DNA of 64,000 nucleotides from an uncultured Bacilli bacterium (GCA_934098745.1 CAKOPG010000004.1:10561-74560); one strand, 5' to 3'. Numbered from the stretch's first letter, positions 44,650 to 64,000 are shown. The notes: generated by a model not told the origin, from the sequence alone. Translations and numbers: made by a program.

Positions 44650-44725
44650 GGGCTGTTAGCTCAGTTGGTAGAGCAACTGACTCTTAATCAGTGGGTCTAG
44701 GGTTCGAATCCCTAACAGCCCACCA
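44650..44725 (+). tRNA. tRNA-Lys (CTT)
   Basis: GGGCTGTTAGCTCAGTTGGTAGAGCAACTGACTCTTAATCAGTGGGTCTAGGGTTCGAATCCCTAACAGCCCACCA; anticodon loop CTCTTAA. Confidence 0.95.
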
Positions 44726-44801
44726 TTTAATTGTTTAAATTGAAAAAAATGCTTGATATTATATTTATTTAATGTTATAATCAATTAGCAGGGAACAAAA
44801 T

Positions 44802-44878
<77 letters not shown>

Positions 44879-44889
44879 TTTTGTTTTAT

Positions 44890-44966
44890 GGCCCGTTGGT
44901 GAAGTGGTTCAACACACATGCCTTTCACGCATGCATTCATGGGTTCAAATCCCGTACGGGTCACCA
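44890..44966 (+). tRNA. tRNA-Glu (TTC)
   Basis: GGCCCGTTGGTGAAGTGGTTCAACACACATGCCTTTCACGCATGCATTCATGGGTTCAAATCCCGTACGGGTCACCA. Confidence 0.93.
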
Positions 44967-49218: not shown

Positions 49219-50142
49219 ATGAATTTTATGACAATTAAAGAGGCAAGTGAAAAATGGGATATTAGTGAAAGAAGAATAAGACAACTTATTCAAGATGGTA
49301 GAATTTTAGGTGCAAAAAAAATTGGCTCTGCATGGTATATTCCAAATGATGCTGGCAAACCAATTGATAAGAGGGTAAAAGAAGAAATTGAATTTAAAAT
49401 AGATCTACCAGAAGATTATTTCAAAGAAGTAGATGAAAAACTTACTAAATTAAATAGCAAAAGACCATTGTCAAAAGAAGCAACAGAATCATTACAAAAT
49501 GCGATTAATCTAGAATGGACATACAACAGTAATGGTATTGAAGGTAACACTTTAACATTAAAAGAAACAAAAGTAGTATTAGAAGGAATTACTATTGGAG
49601 GTAAGTCTATAAAAGAGCATTTAGAAGCTATAAACCATGAAAATGCTATTGAATATTTAGAAGAATTAATTGGTGATAAAAGTGAAATATCTGAATGGAA
49701 TATTAAAGGATTACATCAATTAGTTTTAAAAGGAATTGATGATGAAAATGCCGGAAGATATAGAAATCATGATGTAATTATTAGTGGTGCACAACATAGA
49801 CCACCACAATATATAAAAGTTCCAGAATTAATGGAAAAATTAATAATGAACTATGATGAATGGGATAAGTATCATCCAATAATAAGAGCGGCGTTATTAC
49901 ATGGCGAGTTAGTTAAAATACACCCGTTTATTGATGGAAATGGTAGAACATCTAGATTAATAATGAATATGGAGCTAATGAGAAGTGGATATGTACCAGT
50001 TATCATTAAAAAAGATAATAGATTAAAATATTATGAAGCACTTGATAAAGCACATACAACAGGAGATTATACTGATTTTGTTAAATTAGTAACAGAAGCA
50101 GAAAATGAAATGCTTGATAGATATTTATCGGTAGTAGAATAG
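49219..50142 (+). CDS. HTH-Fic family protein (class II auto-inhibited Fic AMPylase-like)
   Basis: N-terminal excisionase/MerR-like HTH MTIKEASEKWDISERRIRQLI. Inhibitory motif SNGIEGN (S/TxxxEG/N). Active site HPFIDGNGRTSR. Confidence 0.88.
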   Translation: MNFMTIKEASEKWDISERRIRQLIQDGRILGAKKIGSAWYIPNDAGKPIDKRVKEEIEFKIDLPEDYFKEVDEKLTKLNSKRPLSKEATESLQNAINLEWTYNSNGIEGNTLTLKETKVVLEGITIGGKSIKEHLEAINHENAIEYLEELIGDKSEISEWNIKGLHQLVLKGIDDENAGRYRNHDVIISGAQHRPPQYIKVPELMEKLIMNYDEWDKYHPIIRAALLHGELVKIHPFIDGNGRTSRLIMNMELMRSGYVPVIIKKDNRLKYYEALDKAHTTGDYTDFVKLVTEAENEMLDRYLSVVE

Positions 50143-50156
50143 GAGGTATTAAGATT

Positions 50157-50882
50157 ATGTCAAAAATATATAATTTATATTGTGATGAAAGCTGTCATCT
50201 TCAATATGATGGTAACGATATTATGGTTATAGGTACTGTGTACTGTGAAAAAAAGTACAGTTATGAAATAAATACTGATATAAGAAAAATAAAAGAAAAA
50301 TATGGTATCTCATTAAGTAACGAAACTAAGTGGAATAAGGCTCATCAAAATAAGATCGATTATTATACAGAGTTAATAAAATATTTTTTTGATAACGATA
50401 AGTTGAATTTCAGATGTGTTGTAGCAACAAACAAGAAGAATTTAAACTGTAAAGAATATAATATATCTTATGATGACTGGTATAATAGAATATATTATTT
50501 ATTGATAAAAGAACTTATAGACATAGAAAACAATTATAGAATATATATGGATATAAAAGACTCATTAGGTGGTGAAAGAGTTAAGAATTTAAAAACAGTT
50601 TTAAATAGAACATTATATGATTTTACAGAAGAAACAATTGATAGGGTTCAAATAATACGAAGCGACGAAGTTGAGATAATGCAATTAACAGATTTACTGA
50701 TTGGTGCTGTATCTTATAAAAACAGGGGATTAGCAACTAATGCTGGAAAAAATCAATTAATACAAATAATAGAAAATCTATCAGGCAAGAACTTGACGTC
50801 TACATCAAGACCTAAGATGTTTCATGGAAAATTTGATATATTTGTATGGGAACCAGGACATAAGAAATATGGAAAAATGTAA
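50157..50882 (+). CDS. DUF3800-like protein
   Basis: The N-terminal YNLYCDESCHLQ matches the DES-containing start of DUF3800 proteins as I recall it. AGGAGG RBS. Confidence 0.6.
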   Translation: MSKIYNLYCDESCHLQYDGNDIMVIGTVYCEKKYSYEINTDIRKIKEKYGISLSNETKWNKAHQNKIDYYTELIKYFFDNDKLNFRCVVATNKKNLNCKEYNISYDDWYNRIYYLLIKELIDIENNYRIYMDIKDSLGGERVKNLKTVLNRTLYDFTEETIDRVQIIRSDEVEIMQLTDLLIGAVSYKNRGLATNAGKNQLIQIIENLSGKNLTSTSRPKMFHGKFDIFVWEPGHKKYGKM

Positions 50883-51546: not shown

Positions 51547-52656
51547 CTAATTTTCTTCTAAGCTATCTATAACAGAAACAACAGAGTCGAGGGCAGTACT
51601 AAACATATGAGAATATGTATTTAGTGTTTCCTCGATTTTTGTGTGTCCTAAATATTTGGCAACTAATGTAACATTAGCACCATTATTAATAAGTAATGAA
51701 GCACATGAATGTCTGAAATCATGGATCCTAATAACTTTTAAACCAGCAAGATTTGCTAGTTTAGTTCTTCTAAGATATATATTAGAATCAGCTATAGGTT
51801 TAGCATCTGAAACTACAAAGAAATCATCATTAAATCCATAATAGTCTTTTTTATCCTGCTCATAGAGCATTTTAAGGTCATTTAACAAGACTTTAGTAAT
51901 AGGAACTATTCTTCTACTATCTCTTGTCTTAGTATCTGAAAATTCGAATTTAACACGGTTATTTCTTTGCGTTATTTGCTTATTAACAGATAATACTTTT
52001 TTATCGAAATAAATATCTTTCCAAGTAAGTCCTTTTAATTCTCCTTTACGTAGTCCACAATAATACAAAATTTCAAACACACATTTCCATCTTAGATCTT
52101 CTTCATTAGAAATAAACTTTTTAAATTCATCATAAGTATAATAAGCCATTTCTTTTCTACGTTCATTGGGATCTTGAAATTTTGTCATTTTATTATATAC
52201 TGCCTGAAAATTTAAGTTATGCCATTTAACTCCAAAATTTAAAATAGATTTAAGAAACTTATAAATATCATTTTTATATCTAAGAGATATATTAAGTTTA
52301 TTTATTTCTCGCTTCCATTGTTCAAATTGCATAATATTAAAATCTTTTACTTTAATAGGAAAGAAACATTCTATAAATTTTTCTTTATTATCATAACCAT
52401 ACTTAGTAGTTTCTTTCATTATTTCATCGTTATGCATTCTAAACTCATCATATAAGTCTTTAAATGTCATATTGTTATCTTCAACTTTATCAGTAGAGGT
52501 AACTAAAAACATTCTCTCTGCATCAGCTGCTTCTTTTTTAGTTAGATATCTTTTAGATCTATATTGTTTAGTAGCACCAAATGCATCTTTATAACTAAAC
52601 TTAAAATACCAAGCTCTACCATTTTTAGTAGGCTTAGGATCTTTGTAAACTGCCAT
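51547..52656 (-). CDS. int: tyrosine site-specific recombinase (phage integrase family)
   Basis: C-terminal catalytic region GLRKGEL ... RIHDFRHSCASLLINNGANVTLVAKYLGHTKIEETLNTYSH. N-terminal SAM-like domain. Confidence 0.93.
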   Translation of the reverse strand: MAVYKDPKPTKNGRAWYFKFSYKDAFGATKQYRSKRYLTKKEAADAERMFLVTSTDKVEDNNMTFKDLYDEFRMHNDEIMKETTKYGYDNKEKFIECFFPIKVKDFNIMQFEQWKREINKLNISLRYKNDIYKFLKSILNFGVKWHNLNFQAVYNKMTKFQDPNERRKEMAYYTYDEFKKFISNEEDLRWKCVFEILYYCGLRKGELKGLTWKDIYFDKKVLSVNKQITQRNNRVKFEFSDTKTRDSRRIVPITKVLLNDLKMLYEQDKKDYYGFNDDFFVVSDAKPIADSNIYLRRTKLANLAGLKVIRIHDFRHSCASLLINNGANVTLVAKYLGHTKIEETLNTYSHMFSTALDSVVSVIDSLEEN

Positions 52657-52809
52657 TATTTCACCAACTTTCTTGTAGAAATCCCTAATTGGTGATATAA
52701 TTATAGACGAGAAATCTCCAAAATTATATTTATTATAATTATTAAAGTTTACCAGACTTTTTAATTAGGGATTTTTCACTTTGATCACTGTTCCAGCAGT
52801 GGTCTTTTT

Positions 52810-53463
52810 TTAATCATAATATCTTTTAACTTGAACTACAGAACCAATAATTCTAAAGTTCTCATATTCAATAGTACCTTTTAAATAAGTAGTAGGTTTA
52901 AAATCACTGCTAAGATTTAAAGGCATAACCATTATTCCATCATTTATAGTAATAAGTTTTCTAATAGTTGCTATATCTTGTCCTTTTTCCTTAACACAAT
53001 AGAATCCATCTTTATTCATTTTATTTTGTTCTCTAAGAATTATACAATCGTTTTGATGAAACTCAGGATCCATAGTATTATCAGGCATAATTAATCCAAA
53101 ATAACTTTGTTTGTTCTTTATCCATTCTGGAGGTATTAGTTCTTCACCAACTTTAAATGCATTAGTTTTATCAGATAATATATTTCCAAAATATATTTTA
53201 GAAAAAACATCAACTATAACAGTATCATCATTTAATAAATCATCTTCATCTTCAAGCATCTCTTCAATTAAATCAGATTTCTTGATACCAAAGTAATCAG
53301 CAATCATATTTATTTTTTCTACTCTTGGAAATATTCTTCCAGTACACCAATCTGTTAGAGTAGTGTAAGGAATATTTAATCCTTTAGCAAGTTCTTTTCT
53401 AGATACCTTGCGTTCTTTCATAATCGTATTAAGGTTATGTATAAATACATCTCTGCTATCCAT
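52810..53463 (-). CDS. cI/LexA-like repressor (XRE HTH + S24 peptidase-like domain)
   Basis: ATG 53463 after AGGAGG. HTH RKVSRKELAKGLNIPYTTLTDW. C-terminal MPDNTMDPEFHQNDCIIL ... ATIRKL. The track ORF extension to 53805 is discounted. Confidence 0.85.
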   Translation of the reverse strand: MDSRDVFIHNLNTIMKERKVSRKELAKGLNIPYTTLTDWCTGRIFPRVEKINMIADYFGIKKSDLIEEMLEDEDDLLNDDTVIVDVFSKIYFGNILSDKTNAFKVGEELIPPEWIKNKQSYFGLIMPDNTMDPEFHQNDCIILREQNKMNKDGFYCVKEKGQDIATIRKLITINDGIMVMPLNLSSDFKPTTYLKGTIEYENFRIIGSVVQVKRYYD

Positions 53464-53497
53464 ATTGTTACCTCCTCTAATATAAGTATAGCTTACT

Positions 53498-53536
53498 TTA
53501 CGAAAACATTCAAGTAAAATTATGAAAATTTCGTAA
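53498..53536. promoter_or_regulatory. operator-like inverted half-sites TTACGA ... TCGTAA in the divergent cI/cro control region
   Basis: TTACGA at 53498-53503 and TCGTAA at 53531-53536, within the 133-bp divergent intergenic region. Confidence 0.5.
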
Positions 53537-53596
53537 TTTCTATTTACATTTGAAAATTTTTGTAATATTATTAAAATAGGAAGGAGGTCAAAATAA

Positions 53597-53881
53597 GTGC
53601 AGGCTACGTTAAGAGCAATTCGTGTGCACTTAGGTATAAGCATTGATGAAGCAGCTAGAAGAATTGGAATACCAAAGAATAGATTAATAGCCATCGAAAA
53701 ACATAGAACATGTCCTTCATGGCAATTAATTAAAAGATTTATGAGAGTATATGATATACCTTCTGTTAATAATTTGTTGGTATCTAACAAAAAAGAAGAA
53801 ATCAAAATGCATTATAAGTTTTCACACGATCCAATTGTTAGATGTAGTAGTAAAGAAGTAAATGAAGTATGTAGTAAATAG
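53597..53881 (+). CDS. Cro/XRE-family HTH regulator
   Basis: GTG start after GGAAGGAGG. LRAIRVHLGISIDEAARRIGIPKNRLIAIE. Confidence 0.8.
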   Translation: MQATLRAIRVHLGISIDEAARRIGIPKNRLIAIEKHRTCPSWQLIKRFMRVYDIPSVNNLLVSNKKEEIKMHYKFSHDPIVRCSSKEVNEVCSK

Positions 53882-53926
53882 AATTTTATATCATGCAGTA
53901 TCGATATACTTTTTAATAATTTTATG

Positions 53927-53943
53927 TTACGAAAATATCGTAA
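53927..53943. promoter_or_regulatory. palindromic operator-like site TTACGA-AAATA-TCGTAA
   Basis: Perfect 6-bp arms with the same half-site as in the cI/cro region, upstream of the replication operon. Confidence 0.55.
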
Positions 53944-53992
53944 TTAAAGAGTCTGGTAAACTTTAATGAAATAATAAAAAGGAGATTGAAAA

Positions 53993-54256
53993 ATGAAAAG
54001 TAAAACAATATTATCGGCAGAAGAAACGCTAGAAATATTAAATAGTCAGTGGGCTACTGTACAAGATATAATGAAAATAGGTGCTGTGGGAAGAAATAAA
54101 GCAAGAGATATTAAAAATAAAATATCAGATGAAATTATATCAAGTGGATTTAGACTACCTAATAACTTAGTACCAATGGAGAAAGTAATTGATTATTTTA
54201 AAATCAATATAGATTTTTTAGTATCAATTAATAATTCTAAACATGGGAACTTATAA
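53993..54256 (+). CDS. hypothetical small protein (position compatible with an excisionase/regulator)
   Basis: 87 aa, AAGGAGA RBS. No motif recognised. Confidence 0.6.
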   Translation: MKSKTILSAEETLEILNSQWATVQDIMKIGAVGRNKARDIKNKISDEIISSGFRLPNNLVPMEKVIDYFKINIDFLVSINNSKHGNL

Positions 54257-55064
54257 TAAAGAAAAATATTATTACTTTATGCTTAAATCAAACTTTTTTG
54301 ATAATGATGTATTAAAATACTTACAATCTGAACCTAATGGATATGAAAAAATAATTTTATATTTTAAACTTATATTTAAAACAATAAACAAAGATGGATA
54401 TCTAATAAAAAAAGTAGGATCTAAAAAGATTCCATACACAATAAAAGAATTATCAACAGAAACTAATCATTCTGAAGAATTAATAAATGAAGCAATAGAA
54501 TATTATATGGATACAGGAATGATAGAAAAAAGAGATGATAAATACTATATAGAAGATGCATTAGTACTTACTAATCAAACAACAGTAGGAGCTATGAATA
54601 TGAGAGAATATAGAATTAAGAATCCTGACAAGAGTAAGCCAAAATGTAAGAATAAATGTAAGCCAAATAGTAAGGTATATATAGATAATAAAACTAATAA
54701 ACATAACTTAGAAATAATAACTAATAAAAAAGAAATAGAAATAAATAGAAAAGAGTATCAAGACATAATAGATTATTTAAATTATAAGACACATTCTAAT
54801 TTTGTATTAATAGATGAATATAAAAAGATAATAGCTAATATATTAAAAAAATATACAATTAATGATATTAAGACAGTTATAGATAAAAAGACAAGCGAAT
54901 GGATTAATAATCCTAAAATGAAACCATACCTTACACCTGAAACATTATTTGGATCTAAATTTGAAAGATACTTACATCAGCAAGCAAAAGCTAAAACTAT
55001 TCAAGATATATCTTTAGAAGATATTAGAAGAGCTAAAGAAATGAGAGATAAACAAAATGGATAA
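54243..55064 (+). CDS. phage replisome organizer (N-terminal organizer domain + conserved phage C-terminus)
   Basis: YYYFMLKSNFFDNDVLKYLQSEPNGYEKIILYFKLIF, and C-terminal YQDIIDYLNYKTHSNF ... WINNPKMKPYLTPETLFG. Confidence 0.8.
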   Translation: MGTYNKEKYYYFMLKSNFFDNDVLKYLQSEPNGYEKIILYFKLIFKTINKDGYLIKKVGSKKIPYTIKELSTETNHSEELINEAIEYYMDTGMIEKRDDKYYIEDALVLTNQTTVGAMNMREYRIKNPDKSKPKCKNKCKPNSKVYIDNKTNKHNLEIITNKKEIEINRKEYQDIIDYLNYKTHSNFVLIDEYKKIIANILKKYTINDIKTVIDKKTSEWINNPKMKPYLTPETLFGSKFERYLHQQAKAKTIQDISLEDIRRAKEMRDKQNG

Positions 55065-55293: not shown

Positions 55294-55485
55294 ATGAAAA
55301 AAGATGGATACTTTAAATTAGGAGTAGTACCATTATCACCTGAACAAGAAGATAGAAACTATGGTAAATCCATTAGATGGATAGAAAGAGGAATCATACC
55401 AAGATTTTTATTAGAAGATATGCAAAAGTATATTAATAAGTCATCTAATAAATTAAATGGTAATGATAAAAATTATTTAGAGTAA
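55294..55485 (+). CDS. hypothetical small phage-like protein
   Basis: 63 aa, tightly packed in the operon. Confidence 0.5.
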   Translation: MKKDGYFKLGVVPLSPEQEDRNYGKSIRWIERGIIPRFLLEDMQKYINKSSNKLNGNDKNYLE

Positions 55486-55844
55486 TGTATAGATCATGTT
55501 CAGTATGTGGTAGAATTCATCCTGAAGATAAAATGTGTAAAAGAGTATATAAGAAGAATACTAAAGAAAGTCAATTTAGAAATACAAATGCTTGGATCAA
55601 GAAAAGAAATCAAATAAAGAAAAGAGATAGGTATTTATGTCAGTTATGTTTAAAAGATAATATATATACATATGATAACTTACAAGTACACCATATCATA
55701 CCACTAGCAAAAGATTATAATAAAAAACTTGATAGTGATAATTTAATTACACTATGTAGAATACATCATGAACAAGCAGAAAAAGGAATAATAACAAAAG
55801 AAGAATTATATGAATTATTAGAAGTCCCCCCGGAGGGTAGGTAA
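55485..55844 (+). CDS. HNH endonuclease
   Basis: CSVCGR...C..., LQVHHIIPL, NLITLCRIHHEQ. ATG overlaps the upstream stop (TAATG). Confidence 0.88.
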   Translation: MYRSCSVCGRIHPEDKMCKRVYKKNTKESQFRNTNAWIKKRNQIKKRDRYLCQLCLKDNIYTYDNLQVHHIIPLAKDYNKKLDSDNLITLCRIHHEQAEKGIITKEELYELLEVPPEGR

Positions 55845-56402: not shown

Positions 56403-56624
56403 ATGAAGGAAAAAAATGAATTGTTAGCTTCAGCAAAGTTAACATCAAAAGGACAAATTACTATTCCGAAGATTGTTCGAGAAACATTAAATATTGAAGA
56501 AGGAGATTCTGTTATCTTTTATTTAGATGAAAAAAAGAATATAAAGATTTCAAACAGAAAGGATTGTAAAGTTACTCCAGACAGTGATAAAGAACAAGTA
56601 GTAGTAAAGAGAGGTAGTAAATAA
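56403..56624 (+). CDS. AbrB/MazE/SpoVT-family DNA-binding protein
   Basis: KLTSKGQITIPKIVRETLNIEEGDSVIFY swapped-hairpin motif. The stop overlaps the hsdM ATG (TAATG). Confidence 0.85.
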   Translation: MKEKNELLASAKLTSKGQITIPKIVRETLNIEEGDSVIFYLDEKKNIKISNRKDCKVTPDSDKEQVVVKRGSK

Positions 56625-58957
56625 TGAATAATAGTTTAATTAAGACAGTAAAAGAAAAGTCTAATTTTTTGTATAGTATTGCAGAAATATTGACAGGAGA
56701 TTATAAGCCACATCAATATGGTGATGTTATGCTTCCAATGGTTGTTTTGAAAAGATTTGATGATGTTTTGAGTGATACGAAAGATGCTGTTATTGAAGCA
56801 GCAAAAAAATATCCTGAAACATTTGCTAAAAGAGATTTTATATTGAAAGAAATATCAAAAAATAATTTTTATAATACAAGTAATTTTGATTTTAAAAAAT
56901 TATTAAATGAACCTAATGATATAGAAGCTAATTTTTATAATTATCTTGATGGCTTTTCTGATGAAGTAAAAGATATAATGGAAAAATTTAAAATAAAAGA
57001 TCAAATTCAAAAATTAAGTGAACATAATATTTTATATTTAATAATTGATAAATTTAATGAACCTCAAGCAAATATGCATCCGTCTAAAGTAACAAATATA
57101 GAAATGGGCTATATTTTTGAAGAAATAATAAGAAGATACAATGAATTATCTAATGAAGATGCAGGACAGCATTATACGCCTAGAGAAGTTATTGAATTAA
57201 TGGTTAATTTGGTGTTTGAAGATCAATCGGATTTAGCTGATGCCTCAAAAATAAAAACTGTTTATGATGGAGCATGTGGAACGGGTGGTATGTTAACTGG
57301 AAGCATGGAATACGTAAAAAAGCTAAACAGTTCTTCAAAATTATTATGTTATGGCCAAGAAATAGAAGATGCTACATATGCTGTTTGCAAAGCAGACATG
57401 CTAATTAAAGGAGAAAATCCAAATAATATTAGATTTGGTAGCACATTATCAAACGATCAATTTACAGGAGAAAAATTTGATTATATAATTATGAATCCTC
57501 CATTTGGTAGAGACTGGAAAAAAGATAAGGAAAAAGTGGAAAAGGAAGCTGAAAAAGGAGCAGATGGTAGATTTTTTGCTGGAACTCCACCTATTTCAGA
57601 TAGTCAATTATTATTCTTACAAAATGCAGTTTCTAAAATGAAATCAGAAGGATCTAAAGTAGCAATCATTCATAATGGATCTGCATTATGGAATGGAGAG
57701 GCAGGCAAAAGCGAAAGTGAAATCAGAAGATATATAATTGAAAATGATTTATTAGATTGTATTGTTCAATTGCCTACAAATTTGTTTTATAATACTCCAA
57801 TAACAACATATATATGGATTCTTTCAAATAATAAACCTGTACACAGAAAAAATAAAATTCAATTAATAAATGCCGAATCTTTTTATAAAAAAATGCGTAA
57901 AAGTTTAGGCGAAAAGAAAAACGAAATATTACCAAATCAGATTAAAGAAATAACAAAAATTTATGGAGAATTTGTACAAAACAAGTATTCAAAAATTTTT
58001 GAAAAATCTTTTTTTGGATATCAATTAATAAATGTACTTTTACCAAAATACGACGATAACAAAAATGTCGTTATGAAAAATAATAAAGTTGTTTTTGATA
58101 AGAAAAATAAAAATAAGGAGTTTATACCTTTATCAACAAATCCAATTGAATATTTTGAAAAAGAAGTTAAACCTTATTATGAAGATGCGAACTTTGAAAA
58201 AGACGAAATAAAAATAGGATATTCCATTGACTTTGTAAAATATTTTCATGAGCCAATAAAATTTGAAAAAACAACTGAAATAATGAAAAAGATAAATCAA
58301 AATACTAACCTTATTGAAAACACTGTAAAAGATTTATTCGATGATGTAGAAGATGACAATATAAGCTTTAAAATTGAAAAGTATTTAAAAGTAAAAAGTT
58401 GCTTTGTGGTAGCTAAAGACAAAGCACATTTGGATGATCCGGTTATTCTCTCTTTAGCTCGTGATGGTGTTAGAATACGTGATATATCTACAAATGAAGG
58501 ACAATTGGCAGATAGTTATTATGATTATAATCCAGTTAAGAAAAATGACTTGTTACTTAATCCAATGGACTTGGTTAGTGGGGCCAATTGTACTTTATCT
58601 GATAAAGAAGGTGTTATAAGTCCTGCTTATGTAAATTTAAGAAATAAAAAGGGCTATTATTCAAAATATTATGATTATTTCTTTAAAACTCAGTATTGGA
58701 CAAGAAATTTCTTTGCTTGTGGTAAGGGTGTATCCTTTGATAATAGATGGACTTTGAATAATGATGCCTTAATGAATTATAAAATTCCTGTTATTCCTTA
58801 TGATACTCAGAAAAAAATTGCAGATGATTTAGATGTAAAGATAAATAAAATCAATAAAGCCAAAAAAGAACTTGAAGATCAAATTCAATTATTAGAAAGA
58901 TATAAAAGATCATTAATTAATGAAAGAGTATTAGGAGAAGAGAAGTATGAATTATAA
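56624..58957 (+). CDS. hsdM: type I R-M methyltransferase fused to a half-size specificity (single TRD + conserved helix) domain
   Basis: HsdM N-domain, motif I YDGACGTGGML, motif IV IIMNPPFG. The C-terminal 200 aa or so is HsdS-like (GVISPAYVNL ... YKIPVIPYDTQKKIADDLD ... LLERYKRSLINERVLG). Confidence 0.85.
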   Translation: MNNSLIKTVKEKSNFLYSIAEILTGDYKPHQYGDVMLPMVVLKRFDDVLSDTKDAVIEAAKKYPETFAKRDFILKEISKNNFYNTSNFDFKKLLNEPNDIEANFYNYLDGFSDEVKDIMEKFKIKDQIQKLSEHNILYLIIDKFNEPQANMHPSKVTNIEMGYIFEEIIRRYNELSNEDAGQHYTPREVIELMVNLVFEDQSDLADASKIKTVYDGACGTGGMLTGSMEYVKKLNSSSKLLCYGQEIEDATYAVCKADMLIKGENPNNIRFGSTLSNDQFTGEKFDYIIMNPPFGRDWKKDKEKVEKEAEKGADGRFFAGTPPISDSQLLFLQNAVSKMKSEGSKVAIIHNGSALWNGEAGKSESEIRRYIIENDLLDCIVQLPTNLFYNTPITTYIWILSNNKPVHRKNKIQLINAESFYKKMRKSLGEKKNEILPNQIKEITKIYGEFVQNKYSKIFEKSFFGYQLINVLLPKYDDNKNVVMKNNKVVFDKKNKNKEFIPLSTNPIEYFEKEVKPYYEDANFEKDEIKIGYSIDFVKYFHEPIKFEKTTEIMKKINQNTNLIENTVKDLFDDVEDDNISFKIEKYLKVKSCFVVAKDKAHLDDPVILSLARDGVRIRDISTNEGQLADSYYDYNPVKKNDLLLNPMDLVSGANCTLSDKEGVISPAYVNLRNKKGYYSKYYDYFFKTQYWTRNFFACGKGVSFDNRWTLNNDALMNYKIPVIPYDTQKKIADDLDVKINKINKAKKELEDQIQLLERYKRSLINERVLGEEKYEL

Positions 58958-61931
58958 AGAAATAAATTTCGAAGAATCAATTGAAAAATATTTAGTTACT
59001 AAGGGTGGATATCATATTAGTGATGGATTAGGATATGATAGATTAAAAGGATATAATCCTAAAGCATTAATTGATTTTATTGCATCTACTCAAAATAAAA
59101 AATGGATGAAACTAATGTCTATCCACGGTGAATATACAAAGGATTATTTTTTAAAAAAGGTTGAAGAACAAATAAAGGAACATGGTTTACTTGCTACTTT
59201 AAGAGATAAAATTAAACTTGATGGTATGGAATTTAGATTGGTGTTTTTTAAACCTGAAACATCAATGAATCCAGAATTAGAAGAATTATATGATGGCAAT
59301 ATATTAGAATGTGTAAGACAATTACATTATTCCATGGACAATGAAAATAGTGTTGACATAACTTTATTTGTGAATGGATTTCCAATTGTAATAATGGAAT
59401 TAAAAAATCAATATACAGGACAAGATATAAATAATTCAGTGCATCAATTTAAATTTGATAGAGATCCAGAAGAACCAATATTTAAATTTAATGAGAGAAG
59501 CTTAGTATATTTTGGAGTTGATTTGTTTGAATGTGTAATGACTACTAAGCTTGCAAAAGGTGCAACTTATTTCTTGCCGTTTAATCAGGGATCTAATGGT
59601 GCTGGAAATGTTGGTGGTGCAGGTAATCCAAATAATCAAAATGGATTTGGAACTTCATATTTATGGGAGAAAGTTTTATGTAAAGATTCTTTATTAGAGA
59701 TATTACAAAAATATATGCATTTAGATTATGAACCAACAAAATCATGGCGAACAGGAAAAATGATATTTCCGAGATATCATCAATTAGATGCAGTAACAAA
59801 ACTTGTTGCAGATGCTAAAGAAAATGGTAGCGGAAAAAATTACTTAATACAACATAGTGCAGGATCAGGAAAATCAAATTCAATAGCATGGCTTGCATAT
59901 AGATTGTCATCACTACATGATAATGATAATAATAAAGTGTTTGATTCAGTAATCGTTGTTACAGATAGAAAAGTATTAGATAGTCAACTACAAAATACAA
60001 TTTATCAGTTTGATCATGTACCAGGAACAGTAGTTAAAATAGATAAAGGAAAAACTTCTAAAGACTTATTAGAAGCAATTAATGATGGTAAAAAAATAAT
60101 AATTACTACATTACAAAAATTCCCTAGAATATATACAGAAATAAATAGTGTAGATAAGAAATTTGCTGTTATAGTTGATGAAGCACATTCTTCTCAAACT
60201 GGAGCTAGTGCTTCCAAATTAAAAGAAGGATTAGGAAATATTGAAGAAGTATTAGAAGAATACGCTAGAAATGAATTGGCTGAAGAAAACAATAGAGTAG
60301 AAGATGATGATCTTTTAATGAATGAGTTGGCTTCTCATGGAGATCATTCTAATATGTCATTCTTTGCTTTTACTGCAACACCAAAAGATAAGACATTACA
60401 AATATTTGGAACTAAATATCCAGATGGTAGCTACAGACCATATCATGTGTATTCAATGCAACAAGCTATTGAAGAAGGATTTATTCTTGACGTATTAAAA
60501 AATTATATGACATATGATATGTATTATAAAATTGTTAAAAGTGCTGCAGAAGATCCAGAAGTTAAAACTTCAAAAGGTATGAAAGCTATTGCAAGATATG
60601 AATCACTACATCCACATAATTTAAGCCAAAAAGCTGCAATAATGATAGAACATTTCTTGAATACAACAAGATATAAAATTGGTGGAAAAGCTAAAGCTAT
60701 GGTAGTTACATCATCTAGATTACATGCAGTAAGATATTTAAAAGAATTTAGAAAATATATTAAAGATCATAACATAACAGATGTTGATGTATTAGTGGCT
60801 TTCTCAGGTGACTTAAATGATGATGGAGAGATAGTAAGTGAAGAAAAATTAAATATTGATTATAAAGGAAATAATGAACATATTAAAGAAAATCAATTAC
60901 CAAAGAGATTTAATGAATCATATAACGTGTTAATTGTTGCAGAAAAATATCAAACAGGTTTTGATGAACCATTATTACATACAATGTTTGTTGATAAGCC
61001 TTTATACGGTGTAAAAGCAGTTCAAACTCTTTCAAGATTAAATAGAACATGTCCAGGTAAGACTGACACATTTGTGCTTGATTTTGTTAATACTGCAGAT
61101 GAAATTAGAGATTCATTTCAACCATATTATCAAGCAACTAATTTAACAGAAGGTGTAGATCCAAACAATGTTTATGCAATTTATAAAAGAGTAGAAGCAT
61201 ATAGATTATTTTCTGAGGATGAAGCTCTTGAGTTTGCAAAAGTATATTATAGTGGTAAAGAAGATATGTCTAAACTTAATTTCTATTTATATCCTGCAAG
61301 AAAGAAATATATAGATATGAAAAAAGAGGATCAAAGAGAGTTTAAGTCTATTCTTCAAGCATTTATTAGAAGCTATGGATTTGTAGTTCAAGTGGCTAGA
61401 ATGATGGATAAAGATATTCAAAGCAAGTATATTTTCTGTAAATATCTAAATAAAACATTACCTAAAGAACATGAAACAGTAATTGACTTAGATGATAAAA
61501 TAGAACTTGAATATTATAGATTAGAAAAGAAATTTGAAGGATCTATTGAATTGACTTCTGAAGAAGGAGAACTTAATCCTCCAAAAGGTATGATTGGTAA
61601 AAAAGAAGAAGAAAAAGAACCGCTAAGCGTTCTTGTTGATAAAATAAATCAAAGATATAAAACAAATTTTACCAATATGGATAAAGTTATGGAACAAATT
61701 ACACAAGATTTCTTGGATGATGAAGAAATGGTAAATCTAGCTAAACATAACGATCCTGAGTCATTTAGAAAAGTATATAATGATGAATTCCAAAGAAAAG
61801 CCTTTAGAAGATATCAACAAAATACTGATATGTTTGAAAAAATGATGTCAGAACCAGGATATATGGAAGACTTTATGACAAGTATGTTTAAGTTTATTTA
61901 TGATAAATTAAAGAATAAAGAAGAAAAATAA
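58947..61931 (+). CDS. hsdR: type I restriction endonuclease subunit R
   Basis: Nuclease motif DITLFVNGFPIVIMELKN. Helicase motifs QHSAGSGKSNS, VIVDEAHSSQ, FTATP, VAEKYQTGFDEP, QTLSRLNR. Overlaps hsdM by 11 nt. Confidence 0.92.
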   Translation: MNYKEINFEESIEKYLVTKGGYHISDGLGYDRLKGYNPKALIDFIASTQNKKWMKLMSIHGEYTKDYFLKKVEEQIKEHGLLATLRDKIKLDGMEFRLVFFKPETSMNPELEELYDGNILECVRQLHYSMDNENSVDITLFVNGFPIVIMELKNQYTGQDINNSVHQFKFDRDPEEPIFKFNERSLVYFGVDLFECVMTTKLAKGATYFLPFNQGSNGAGNVGGAGNPNNQNGFGTSYLWEKVLCKDSLLEILQKYMHLDYEPTKSWRTGKMIFPRYHQLDAVTKLVADAKENGSGKNYLIQHSAGSGKSNSIAWLAYRLSSLHDNDNNKVFDSVIVVTDRKVLDSQLQNTIYQFDHVPGTVVKIDKGKTSKDLLEAINDGKKIIITTLQKFPRIYTEINSVDKKFAVIVDEAHSSQTGASASKLKEGLGNIEEVLEEYARNELAEENNRVEDDDLLMNELASHGDHSNMSFFAFTATPKDKTLQIFGTKYPDGSYRPYHVYSMQQAIEEGFILDVLKNYMTYDMYYKIVKSAAEDPEVKTSKGMKAIARYESLHPHNLSQKAAIMIEHFLNTTRYKIGGKAKAMVVTSSRLHAVRYLKEFRKYIKDHNITDVDVLVAFSGDLNDDGEIVSEEKLNIDYKGNNEHIKENQLPKRFNESYNVLIVAEKYQTGFDEPLLHTMFVDKPLYGVKAVQTLSRLNRTCPGKTDTFVLDFVNTADEIRDSFQPYYQATNLTEGVDPNNVYAIYKRVEAYRLFSEDEALEFAKVYYSGKEDMSKLNFYLYPARKKYIDMKKEDQREFKSILQAFIRSYGFVVQVARMMDKDIQSKYIFCKYLNKTLPKEHETVIDLDDKIELEYYRLEKKFEGSIELTSEEGELNPPKGMIGKKEEEKEPLSVLVDKINQRYKTNFTNMDKVMEQITQDFLDDEEMVNLAKHNDPESFRKVYNDEFQRKAFRRYQQNTDMFEKMMSEPGYMEDFMTSMFKFIYDKLKNKEEK

Positions 61932-61955
61932 GTTCGTATTAATACGGACTTTTTT
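61931..61955 (+). terminator. hsdR terminator
   Basis: AGTTCGTATT / AATACGGACT stem (one G-U) followed by TTTTT. Confidence 0.7.
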
Positions 61956-62013
61956 GGTGTATTTAGGTAAAAAATGGTTTATTCTATGTTATAATTTATA
62001 TAGGTGATTACTT

Positions 62014-62400
62014 ATGATAATTAAAGTAGTAGCATGCTTAATTGAAAAGGATAATAAAGTTCTTATTGCAAAACGTTCAACAGGTGATCCTAATGTTTTA
62101 GGTAAATGGGAATTTCCAGGAGGAAAGGTAGAACCTGATGAGGATGAGAAACATGCCATTGAAAGAGAAATTAAAGAAGAATTTGAATTAGTAATAAAAG
62201 CTAACAATTATTTGATTAATAATATATGTGAATATCCAAAGAAAACTGTGGATTTAAGATTGTATAGTTGTGATTATATTTCTGGTGATTTTAAACTTCA
62301 TGATCATTCAGAATATAAATGGGTAGAGAAAGATAATTTATTAGATTATGATTTAGCACCTGCTGATATTCCTCTTGCCAAATTTGTTAAGGAGAAATAA
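62014..62400 (+). CDS. MutT-type Nudix hydrolase
   Basis: Nudix box GGKVEPDEDEKHAIEREIKEEFEL preceded by GKWEFPGG. TATAAT plus an AGGTGA RBS upstream. Confidence 0.9.
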   Translation: MIIKVVACLIEKDNKVLIAKRSTGDPNVLGKWEFPGGKVEPDEDEKHAIEREIKEEFELVIKANNYLINNICEYPKKTVDLRLYSCDYISGDFKLHDHSEYKWVEKDNLLDYDLAPADIPLAKFVKEK

Positions 62401-62402
62401 TT

Positions 62403-63683
62403 ATGAGTACTTTAAGAGAAATTGTTTATAATTCAGTTATTGCTATTCACAGAAGAACTGGAAAAGAGTGGATCCCACTAAAAGAAATTTATGAAGAAGT
62501 TGATAAAAAACGAGATGTTGGCATAAACAATGGCGGTGCTTCAGTAAGGGCAGCATTAGAAACACATAGTGCACTATCAGAAGTGTTTTCTGGAACCGAG
62601 GAATATATCCTTAAAGAAAAAGGATCAGGTCTTTATAAATCTATATATTATGATCAAATAAAATTTATAAATAATATAAATATTGGGGATGTATTCACAC
62701 GAGATCAATTAATGGCAATCTTTAAAATAAGTGGTCAGTCAGGCATAATGAAAACTAATTCATTAAATTGTTTAGTATTAACAACATCAGAAGAAAATGG
62801 TGTGTATGGTGATAGTACTGTTGAAAACGGATTTATTACATATACTGGTGAAGGATTAACTGGCGATCAAACTATTACAAAAAACAATAAGACAATTTAT
62901 GAGTCAAATGAAAATGATTTACCAATGTATTTATTTTCTAAAGATAATAATAAAAAATACATTTTTGAAGGGCAAGTTAAATTATGTGCAGAGCCATATC
63001 AAGTTATAGAAAAAGACATAGATGGAAACGATAGACTCGTATGGAAATTTCCTTTATCAATTGTATATCCAAATGATTATGATTTCGAAAAAGACGAAAA
63101 GTTCAATGAAATAGTTTATGAGATAACTGAAATAGAAAGTAAAGTATATTCTGATATGATGGAAGAAGAAAATGATTTAGAATATAGAGAAGGCAAAATA
63201 AATATCAGGAAATATAGAAAAACAGATAAAAAGATTCAAAGAACTAAGAAGCCAGATTATATAGCTGAAGAAATTATAAAAACAAATCAAGGAATTATAA
63301 ATGAGAAAGTTGTATATGAAAATGAGATTAAACGTCTAATGGAAGCTGAAGCAAAAGAGCAAGTTAGGAAAATGGAAGAATTCTTTGAAAATAAGAAAGA
63401 GAATGAAGGATTTGATATTTTATCATTTGAATTAAATGAAGATGGCGAATATGTTGAAAAATATATAGAAGTTAAATCAACAAAAGGTAATGAAGGAACA
63501 CCAATTGATATTACAGCTGATGAAATAGATTTTGCAAAAAAACATATAGATAATTATTATTTATATAGAATAATTAATAGCGAAAGCAAAGATCGATATC
63601 TAAAAATAGTAAAAGGTAAAGATTTATTCAATAATGCTGATTACAATTTTATTCCAACGAGTTATAAAATATATTCAAATTAA
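62403..63683 (+). CDS. wHTH + SRA(YDG)-like + DUF3883 (PD-(D/E)xK) protein; candidate modification-dependent (type IV) restriction enzyme
   Basis: The middle region IGDVFTRDQL..SGQSGI...VYGDSTVENGFITYTGEGLTGDQ...N follows the SRA pattern G..F..R...G.H..GI...Y.D....YTG.GG..DQ..N. The C-terminus FDILSFE...YIEVKSTKG...ITADEIDFAKKH..NYYLYRI is DUF3883-like. It starts 2 nt after the Nudix stop. Confidence 0.6.
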   Translation: MSTLREIVYNSVIAIHRRTGKEWIPLKEIYEEVDKKRDVGINNGGASVRAALETHSALSEVFSGTEEYILKEKGSGLYKSIYYDQIKFINNINIGDVFTRDQLMAIFKISGQSGIMKTNSLNCLVLTTSEENGVYGDSTVENGFITYTGEGLTGDQTITKNNKTIYESNENDLPMYLFSKDNNKKYIFEGQVKLCAEPYQVIEKDIDGNDRLVWKFPLSIVYPNDYDFEKDEKFNEIVYEITEIESKVYSDMMEEENDLEYREGKINIRKYRKTDKKIQRTKKPDYIAEEIIKTNQGIINEKVVYENEIKRLMEAEAKEQVRKMEEFFENKKENEGFDILSFELNEDGEYVEKYIEVKSTKGNEGTPIDITADEIDFAKKHIDNYYLYRIINSESKDRYLKIVKGKDLFNNADYNFIPTSYKIYSN

Positions 63684-63715
63684 AAGTCCAGAAACATTAA
63701 TTCTGAACTTTTTTA
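63683..63715. terminator. bidirectional terminator
   Basis: AAAGTCCAGAA / TTCTGAACTTT stem (one mismatch) followed by TTTTATTT, between convergent genes. Confidence 0.65.
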
Positions 63716-63954
63716 TTTGATATAAAAGTAATTTTAGTTGCGATAATTATAATTCTATGAAGATCATCAATTTCAATATATCCTTTAATGCCAATTAAAT
63801 CGTTTTCTTTAATATAATTATTTAGTTCTTTATGAAAACCTTTTGAGATATTTATTCTGACAATTTGATGATTTTCTAAGCCTTCGACCTTTAAGAGTAA
63901 TTCTTCGCCTTCAATGCCTTTAAAGCATCCAGAAATAACAACGCTATTAACCAT
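63697..63954 (-). CDS. hypothetical small protein (possible OB-fold)
   Basis: ATG 63954 after AAAGGAGG. 85 aa. No motif recognised. Confidence 0.55.
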   Translation of the reverse strand: MVNSVVISGCFKGIEGEELLLKVEGLENHQIVRINISKGFHKELNNYIKENDLIGIKGYIEIDDLHRIIIIATKITFISNKKVQN

Positions 63955-64000
63955 AATATCCTCCTTTTTAATAGTTGTTGTATTAATCACTTAATTATTG

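Follow-up and report, generated by a model that had tools for sequence, protein, structure and literature searches.

A two-gene operon coupling a small NudG-like Nudix hydrolase to a predicted modification-dependent (type IV) restriction nuclease lies at positions 62,014 to 63,683 of a 64,000-nt stretch of DNA from an uncultured Bacilli bacterium (GCA_934098745.1, CAKOPG010000004.1:10561-74560; this whole stretch is called the window below), and, judging from sequence comparisons, the locus appears to be a self-contained and mobile unit. In the reading that we prefer, and to which we give about an even chance, the Nudix enzyme would destroy 5-methyl- and 5-hydroxymethyl-dCTP and so keep the host DNA free of these modified bases, by which self-restriction would be prevented. 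A first-pass annotation of the window had proposed two open reading frames (ORFs) with a 2-nt spacer, transcribed from a shared TATAAT promoter between two terminators; the gene coordinates proved exact, and each of the signals could be located as listed here.

61930..61951, + strand: intrinsic terminator of the upstream hsdR gene, forming the left edge of the cassette (terminator scan; fold -9.3 kcal/mol, z = -3.85)
61987..61995, + strand: extended -10 promoter-like box TGTTATAAT, read from the sequence, a putative promoter
62014..62400, + strand: NudG-like Nudix gene, 128 aa (ORF call confirmed)
62403..63683, + strand: gene for the winged-helix-like, SRA and DUF3883 protein, 426 aa (ORF call confirmed)
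63682..63712, both strands: hairpin followed by a T-run, 3′ of the 426-aa gene (+ strand -7.6 kcal/mol, z = -2.5; - strand -13 kcal/mol, z = -4.9)

The Nudix gene ends with TAA at 62398-62400 and the ATG of the 426-aa gene follows at 62403, with the ribosome-binding site of the latter (AGGAG, 62390-62394, 8 nt 5′ of the ATG) embedded in the Nudix 3′ end; the Nudix gene has its own site, AGGTGA at 62002-62007, 6 nt 5′ of its ATG. The TATAAT box at 61990-61995 is preceded by a TG at 61987-88, and no good -35 element was seen; because a convincing -35 is lacking, the box was absent from the list returned by a two-hexamer promoter scan. DNA similarity to relatives that carry other upstream genes begins at ~61968-61987, namely at the cassette's own promoter and just 3′ of the hsdR terminator. 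The hairpin at 63682-63712 is probably a bidirectional terminator common to the operon and a convergent 97-aa ORF (63697-63990, - strand), which matches nothing in Pfam or PADLOC and is kept beside the cassette in close relatives only (86-94% identity). An antisense 72-aa ORF at 61989-62207 was disregarded, as nothing supported it.

The 426-aa protein appears from its domain content to follow the type IV plan of a modification reader joined to a nuclease, and no cognate methyltransferase was found; the search for a C5 methyltransferase in the 64-kb window, with an M.HhaI sequence as the query, was a weak test. Three domains were delimited, and all the SRA and nuclease motifs that the first-pass annotation had quoted are present.

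62403..62657, + strand: winged-helix-like N-terminal domain, aa 1-85 (AlphaFold2 (AF2) domain model and Foldseek)
62658..63068, + strand: predicted SRA domain, binding flipped 5-methylcytosine (5mC) or 5-hydroxymethylcytosine (5hmC), aa ~86-222 (Foldseek, PF26348 in homologues, invariant motif)
63288..63680, + strand: DUF3883/NOV_C PD-(D/E)xK nuclease domain, aa ~296-426 (Pfam, PADLOC, invariant residues)

For the nuclease domain, the Pfam model NOV_C/DUF3883 (PF13020) matched residues 301-400 at 2.1e-15, with 57 bits against a cutoff of 22.1, and the C-terminal half of the protein matched PADLOC PDC-S36 at 5e-20. The motifs FDIL (337-340), IEVKST (355-360) and YYLYRI (385-390) frame the core; D338 in FDILS and E356 and K358 in IEVKST are invariant among 25 sequences, and D338 and E356-V-K358 lie on neighbouring predicted strands, as expected of a PD-(D/E)xK fold. 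These three are the predicted catalytic residues. The type IV logic that had been suggested for such a fusion is borne out by experiment in related enzymes: McaZI, BwiMMI, EfaL9I and YenY4I, in which a reader is fused to DUF3883 as the catalytic domain, are modification-dependent, restrict T4gt, an hmC phage, and show toxicity in Dcm+ cells (PMC6765204).

The SRA domain is less visible to profiles than to structure comparison. Pfam SAD_SRA (PF02182) matched residues 89-191 weakly (6e-4, 20.0 bits), under its cutoff of 30.7, and PDB sequence and profile searches with the 426-aa protein returned ScoMcrA at a marginal E = 0.03-0.05 only. One relative (L023) clears the SAD_SRA cutoff with 34.6 bits, and 196 homologues of the 426-aa protein were found, among which all full-length proteins in the matches listed carry precomputed PF13020 and PF26348 (SRA_ScoMcrA) and many carry PF02182 as well. 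When the AF2 model of the whole protein (built with 25 sequences; mean pLDDT 76.5, pTM 0.51) was compared with the PDB by Foldseek, the ScoMcrA structure 5zmn, which spans the sulfur-binding domain (SBD) and the SRA, was the best match (5.5e-9), and the probability was 1.0 to the SRA domains of ScoMcrA, SUVH5, UHRF1/2, TagI and MspJI; the SUVH5 SRA-DNA complexes reached a target-normalised TM-score of 0.65-0.69, and KRYPTONITE/SUVH6, SauUSI and MspJI (~1e-6) were further matches. Supportively, the motifs G95.VF.R..L....G.SGI, VYGD (134-137), YTGEG..GDQ (147-156) and Y.FEG (186-190) are in place; within the element Y135-x-D137 ... Y147-T-G-E-G-x-x-G-D-Q156, which aligns with the matching ScoMcrA segment, D137, Y147, T148 and Q156 are invariant and Y135, G149-E150-G151, G154 and D155 nearly so. 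The identity of the predicted SRA domain is established by its modelled structure and its family, in agreement with the first-pass annotation.

The N-terminal winged helix of that annotation held at the level of fold and went no further. A domain-only AF2 model of aa 1-85 (pLDDT 86.4) has the H-H-H-beta-beta topology (H4-19, H26-36, H43-54, E68-70, E77-80), and its 50 top Foldseek matches include many named winged-helix domains (ORC, MCM, forkhead, MukE, STIV F93, Rok), all weak, with E = 0.02-0.4 and TM 0.4-0.63; no Pfam match was obtained for this segment. A specialised sensor role, such as that of the N6-methyladenine-binding winged helix of DpnI or the sulfur-binding domain of ScoMcrA, was considered and rejected, the Foldseek matches being generic. 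The model supports a winged-helix-like domain at fold level only, with no sign of a specialised sensor, and about one fifth of the family (members of ~340 aa) lacks the domain.

We consider it very doubtful that the 426-aa protein is something other than a DNA restriction enzyme, for instance an RNA-directed or regulatory member of the PUA superfamily or an inactive nuclease. Such a view could draw on the SAD_SRA score under the cutoff, the pTM of the whole-protein model, and the poor in vitro cutting of the characterised reader-DUF3883 enzymes (PMC6765204); however, the Foldseek matches are specifically to SRA domains that flip 5mC out of DNA, the pocket-motif and D-ExK residues are invariant, the gene stands within a defence island, and one source annotation among the homologues reads '5-methylcytosine-specific restriction protein A'. 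The combination of winged-helix-like, SRA and DUF3883 domains is an uncharacterised arrangement of known parts, which reduces the novelty of the nuclease to a new domain combination.

The 128-aa partner is a Nudix protein by both Pfam models that matched above their cutoffs (NUDIX, 1.9e-14, 54.3 bits against 21.1; NUDIX_4, 3.8e-13). Its Nudix box, G37-x5-E43-x7-R51-E52-I53-x-E55-E56-x-E58-L59, retains all catalytic positions, although it is not the perfect box that had been claimed, since the final consensus G is replaced by E58. The proposed analogy with NudG gained support: the best PDB match is E. coli NudG (2rrk, 3e-23), followed by 5x1x (1.7e-17), recognised by its sequence as an S. aureus protein, and the best NCBIfam model is NudG PRK10546 (1.6e-30), whose 105.7 bits fall under the cutoff of 156; the MutT models TIGR00586 (70.1 against 97.9) and PRK10776 (58.1 against 148) scored lower and also under their cutoffs. 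On these scores the protein is best described as NudG-like, not as a NudG orthologue. In the alignment to NudG, the residues E33, R77 and D118 of that enzyme, which with R72 are reportedly those singled out by mutagenesis work, correspond to E33, K77 and D118, all three invariant in the family, and C72 occupies the position of R72. E. coli NudG is a CTP/dCTP/5-methyl-dCTP pyrophosphohydrolase with a kcat/Km of ~1.3e6 /M/s for 5-methyl-dCTP (PMC5158307; PMC3744803). The Nudix family is much bigger than that of its partner, with more than 5800 clusters against the 196 homologues, and the PADLOC-DB match of the protein is PDC-S07 (4.9e-43), listed there as a single-gene candidate for defence. No second Nudix gene and no MazG-like gene was found in the 64-kb window.

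Co-occurrence of the two genes elsewhere had been chosen beforehand as the test by which the pairing could fail, and it came out strongly in favour of the pairing. Among 26 loci of a genome collection (L001-L026) that hold relatives of the 426-aa protein, 20 have a Nudix gene directly upstream of the SRA-DUF3883 gene, 66-93% identical to that of the window; in the other six the Nudix is absent (three), a pseudogene (one) or beyond a contig end (two). The linkage persists down to a partner identity of 56%, and at the same loci the Nudix is kept better than its partner (66-78% versus 56-71%). Loci with a damaged reader tend to have lost the Nudix as well: L024 has a degenerate SRA motif, no SAD_SRA match and no Nudix; L026 has a deleted SRA domain (313 aa) and no Nudix; and at L009 the YTGEG..GDQ motif is damaged and only fragments of the Nudix are left. 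L023 has an intact SRA and no Nudix, and carries a MazG-like nucleoside triphosphate (NTP) pyrophosphatase (PF12643) two genes downstream.

The reciprocal scan, seeded with the Nudix, covered the best 80 of at least 385 metagenome matches (69-100% identity), of which 70 loci were assessable, having at least 300 nt downstream. At 58 of the 70, a modified-cytosine restriction enzyme of one of five architectures, given first in the following list, begins within ~40 nt 3′ of the Nudix.

SRA-DUF3883 downstream: 20 loci
SauUSI-like PLD-helicase-DUF3427 downstream: 20 loci (7clg at 1.4e-119; PADLOC mREase_IV up to 8.8e-199)
SRA-HNH downstream: 9 loci
EVE-HNH downstream: 7 loci (VcaM4I 6YEX at 5.7e-18)
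McrB_N-DUF3883 downstream: 2 loci
DUF2075/SLFN-g3 helicase (PDC-S41) downstream: 3 loci
SWIM protein downstream: 1 locus
AAA protein downstream: 1 locus
none of these partners downstream: 7 loci

Nudix genes that precede SauUSI-like genes are 69-83% identical to the window Nudix; two Nudix proteins at 81-83% have SRA_ScoMcrA-HNH genes directly downstream, beside integrases; and on an S. aureus fragment the beginning of a SauUSI-like gene comes after a Nudix that is 97-98% identical to PDB 5x1x. At ~39% Nudix identity the association is still found on plasmids: in Priestia megaterium, Nudix and SRA-HNH genes overlap by 4 nt, and on B. thuringiensis pMC429 the SRA-HNH gene comes first and the Nudix follows after a 33-nt gap, its match to PDC-S07 being stronger than that of the window protein (4.5e-50). 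Clusters of the Nudix at 80% identity mix the partner classes, and the nearest non-duplicate Nudix has a partner of the same class in 46 of 93 cases. The pair thus appears, from these comparisons, to move as a unit, with the nuclease swapped behind a conserved Nudix. Three nucleases (L101, L118 and L123) are chimeras in which an SRA nearest to the SRA-HNH type (59-66% identity) is fused to DUF3883 (57-64%), which shows directly that domains have been shuffled between enzymes linked to the Nudix.

These data bear on whether the Nudix could be an ordinary antimutator, acting on 8-oxo-dGTP or 2-OH-dATP and functionally unrelated to the variable defence genes that chance has brought in beside it. 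Conserved Nudix genes with varying partners would be expected in that case, and a stand-alone paralogue in one genome (L003), the ~10% of clade members that have no defence partner, and a Nudix deletion with no restriction phenotype would fit too. However, when the 1.5-kb segments upstream of the Nudix were clustered, 62 loci gave 39 unrelated groups, which speaks against the Nudix being a core gene next to a hotspot of insertion; the cassette similarity begins at its own promoter; intergenic gaps are 2-40 nt, or a 4-nt overlap takes their place; the pair is found on plasmids, integrative islands and the S. aureus chromosome; and the partners are almost exclusively modified-cytosine enzymes and not defence genes at large. 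An accidental association is therefore improbable in our view. The L003 paralogue (L003:11510-11896, 65% identical) lies between transporter genes in a genome that also has the Nudix/SRA-DUF3883 cassette, and may be a housekeeping copy.

The five partner classes have different readers and three nuclease folds (PD-(D/E)xK, HNH and PLD), and some use ATP while most do not; what they share is the recognition of C5-modified cytosine. As this is all that they have in common, the function of the Nudix is most simply tied to modified cytosine nucleotides. In the self-protection that we favour, the SRA domain of the 426-aa protein would flip out and check a C5-modified cytosine (5mC and/or 5hmC), the generic winged-helix domain would supply extra DNA contacts, and the C-terminal DUF3883 PD-(D/E)xK domain would cleave the DNA. 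Methylated DNA that the cell salvages or scavenges, the debris left by the nuclease among it, could be a source of modified dCMP; once rephosphorylated and incorporated in the chromosome, this nucleotide would give hemimodified sites open to the nuclease. By hydrolysing modified dCTP (5-methyl-dCTP, possibly 5-hydroxymethyl-dCTP) to the monophosphate, the Nudix would do at the level of metabolism what the methyltransferase does in a classical restriction-modification (R-M) system. We infer that restriction sets 5-methyl-dCMP free in the cell, which would be a direct reason for coupling the two genes.

A different kind of coupling would be that the Nudix is needed for the activity or control of the nuclease, whether as a binding partner, as an enzyme that removes an inhibitory nucleotide, or as one that disposes of pyrophosphate-type products arising from ATP hydrolysis. 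The tight translational coupling of the two genes agrees with this, and the last of these options was the original suggestion of 2011 (PMC3141236), but restriction was retained when the S. aureus nudix gene was deleted, and purified SauUSI, SRA-HNH, EVE-HNH and reader-DUF3883 enzymes work or restrict without a Nudix. Furthermore, most partner types have no ATPase, and that one Nudix serves structurally unrelated partners speaks against a specific protein-protein interface. A cofactor or regulator role is accordingly rated as highly improbable.

The more serious competitor is an offensive one, in which the Nudix would destroy the 5hm-dCTP or 5m-dCTP of phages, so that cytosine-replacing phages either stall or make unmodified DNA open to cleavage by the type I system next door, and any DNA that keeps the modification is cut by the type IV enzyme. 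Linkage to modified-cytosine enzymes fits this scheme equally well, and so does the 2012 deletion, as plasmid restriction would not need the Nudix; PADLOC has the Nudix among its single-gene candidates for defence (PDC-S07), the operon is immediately preceded in the window by a type I R-M system, islands of this kind repeatedly contain a MazG-like NTP pyrophosphatase, and enrichment in defence islands would also be explained. Yet removal of the modification would remove the substrate of the operon partner, and NudG/MutT-type enzymes are low-flux pool sanitisers and not bulk dNTPases. That the Nudix is better conserved than its partners suits a constant housekeeping task on a small molecule more than an interface shaped by an arms race, and the Nudix decays with the SRA although it would remain useful alone under pool depletion. 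In addition, a viral-contig scan with the Nudix alignment returned relatives at no more than 35% identity plus one short fragment at 45%, and in the collection scanned the close Nudix clade is not phage-borne. We regard pool depletion as unlikely, and the comparative evidence leans to self-protection over the starvation of phages.

Self-protection is preferred because enzymes of this kind demonstrably endanger hosts that contain 5mC, because SauUSI translocates on hemimethylated DNA (bioRxiv 10.1101/2025.10.16.682607), because NudG/MutT-type enzymes are sanitisers at trace level, because the Nudix is more conserved than its partners and decays along with the reader, and because Nudix deletion leaves restriction intact, as a protective and not a catalytic partner predicts. 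Several points weigh on the other side. The S. aureus nudix deletion mutant was obtainable and no defect was reported, indicating that protection is not essential in laboratory medium (PMC3312211), and self-protection would require these bacteria to phosphorylate 5-methyl-dCMP to the triphosphate. The correlation of SRA loss with Nudix loss is based on three or four loci; about a dozen entries of the metagenome sample, which comprises the best 80 of at least 385 matches, are near-duplicates of the window locus; 12 of the 70 Nudix loci have no recognised modified-cytosine nuclease; and the L003 genome has its stand-alone paralogue. The window Nudix scores under the NCBIfam cutoffs for NudG and MutT alike. 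Finally, the downstream Nudix in B. thuringiensis indicates that a 'protector first' gene order is not universal, and the argument that the protective gene always comes first was dropped for the reversed order on pMC429.

The 105-aa MazG-like NTP pyrophosphatase (PF12643) recurs in these islands at 70-85% identity, often directly 3′ of the type IV gene (L023:8133-8447; L096:3267-3578; L138:7692-8003; L161:3060-3371; L098:2728-3039; also L119, L160, L123, L151 and L026). It usually precedes a DUF2075/SLFN-g3 helicase of ~590 aa, and this pair, which is not in the window, abuts the Nudix/type IV pair; the two genes make up a second pairing of a small NTP pyrophosphatase with a DNA-acting NTPase. 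At L026:7448-8089, between the SRA-less DUF3883 gene and the MazG-like gene, an ORF carries an HD-domain-like 'HD..E' signature, noted by eye, and is possibly a YfbR-type 5′-deoxynucleotidase. As a tentative generalisation, for which we see somewhat less than an even chance, small NTP pyrophosphatases (the Nudix here, maybe the MazG-like protein in sister islands) would be dedicated immunity factors for modification-dependent restriction that exclude modified dCTP from the precursor pool, in place of a mark on the DNA of the cell, forming a portable cassette with any modified-cytosine nuclease.

Within the window, the Nudix/nuclease pair closes an integrase-bearing defence and mobile island, with the following further genes.

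49219-50142: Fic/SoFic-like gene (PADLOC PDC-S04, 6e-38)
50157-50882: DUF3800 gene (PADLOC PDC-M04A, 5e-80)
51547-52656, - strand: tyrosine integrase
52810-53805, - strand: CI/LexA-like repressor
54243-55064: phage replisome organiser
55485-55844: small HNH protein
56624-58957: type I HsdM fused to an HsdS with a single target recognition domain (MTase_I residues 8-474, Specificity_I residues 586-770)
58947-61931: HsdR

Given the PDC-S04 and PDC-M04A genes just before the integrase, the defence island covers at least 49-64 kb, and a tRNA-Lys/Ile/Glu cluster lies upstream of it at 44650-44966. The methyltransferase near the pair is part of an N6-adenine type I system, and no separate hsdS is visible between the HsdM-S fusion and hsdR. 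GC content is uniform at 27%, and the closest records are gut metagenome-assembled genomes labelled uncultured Bacilli and 'Clostridium sp. CAG:710'. Two loci, L008 and L090, match window positions 51554-54397 and 61465-64000, so that the integrase/repressor region directly abuts the hsdR 3′ end; in these deletion variants the genes from the replisome organiser through hsdM-S, the HNH gene included, are gone together with most of hsdR, and the Nudix/nuclease cassette is kept. L085 is 99.8% identical to window positions 57514-62557, where the similarity ends within the SRA-DUF3883 gene (~62557), and represents an allele that has been disrupted or else a chimeric assembly.

According to the current view, a type IV enzyme calls for no self-protection, since its host does not carry the modification, and this view would be incomplete if the Nudix is a safeguard that cleans the nucleotide pool. 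Salvaged or restriction-derived 5-methyl-dCMP would then be a real autoimmunity hazard against which mobile type IV cassettes bring their own antidote, a safeguard of self against non-self at the metabolite level, equivalent in function to the methyltransferase of R-M systems. It would also answer the question raised in 2011 on the purpose of the Nudix beside SauUSI, assign a function to the PADLOC candidate PDC-S07, and predict toxicity of 5-methyl-deoxycytidine for S. aureus and other Firmicutes in which the Nudix is mutated. The winged-helix-like SRA-DUF3883 enzyme is in addition a possible new 5mC/5hmC-dependent reagent.

The pairing of a Nudix with a type IV enzyme is itself not new, contrary to what the first-pass annotation had supposed. 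A MutT/Nudix gene beside sauUSI, linked to at least 60 SauUSI-like enzymes, was reported by Xu et al. in 2011, who left its function open and guessed at the breakdown of pyrophosphate (PMC3141236), and Monk et al. deleted the gene in S. aureus strain Newman in 2012 with no loss of restriction (PMC3312211); PADLOC, moreover, lists the Nudix as PDC-S07. In the literature searched, nothing past the 2011 note and the 2012 deletion gave a function for the pairing, and neither 'MutT' nor 'hydrolase' had a match in the recent SauUSI preprint (bioRxiv 10.1101/2025.10.16.682607); the breadth of the Nudix association, over five architectures, was not present in that literature.

The closest known arrangement is that of SauUSI and its Nudix (S. 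aureus SAUSA300_2431/2432; PDB 7clg and 5x1x), in which a MutT/NudG-like Nudix likewise lies directly upstream of a 5mC/5hmC-dependent type IV enzyme and ranks second among the solved relatives of the window Nudix. The nucleases differ, SauUSI being a 953-aa ATP-dependent PLD-helicase-DUF3427 motor, whereas the window enzyme has 426 aa, a canonical SRA, a PD-(D/E)xK domain and no ATPase domain. McaZI, BwiMMI, EfaL9I and YenY4I share with it the N-terminal reader and the C-terminal DUF3883 PD-(D/E)xK nuclease, but their reader is DUF3427 (with a PUA-like domain added in YenY4I) and not SRA, they have no winged helix, and the partners reported for them are DUF2075 NTPases or C5 methyltransferases and do not include a Nudix. 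The SRA-HNH enzymes (TagI, ScoA3IV/Sco5333) and the SBD-SRA-HNH enzyme ScoMcrA have the same ScoMcrA-type SRA (PF26348), and SRA-HNH enzymes have the same Nudix partner both in Firmicutes of the gut and on plasmids of Bacillus and Priestia; their nuclease is HNH in place of DUF3883, and ScoMcrA adds a phosphorothioate-binding domain. In the MspJI family, too, an SRA-like reader is N-terminal to a PD-(D/E)xK nuclease, which however belongs to another PD-(D/E)xK family, and no sequence-level match to the window protein was found. We know of no Nudix partner for MspJI.

As to the Nudix, E. coli NudG (Orf135), its closest solved relative, and human DCTPP1 are pool sanitisers preferring 5-methyl-dCTP, as is reported for the latter (PMC4491611). 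Both are stand-alone housekeeping genes that have no nuclease partner, unlike the Nudix of the window, and the fold of DCTPP1 is MazG and not Nudix. PADLOC holds PDC-S07 and PDC-S36 as separate single-gene candidates with no description line, whereas in the window both stand within one operon.

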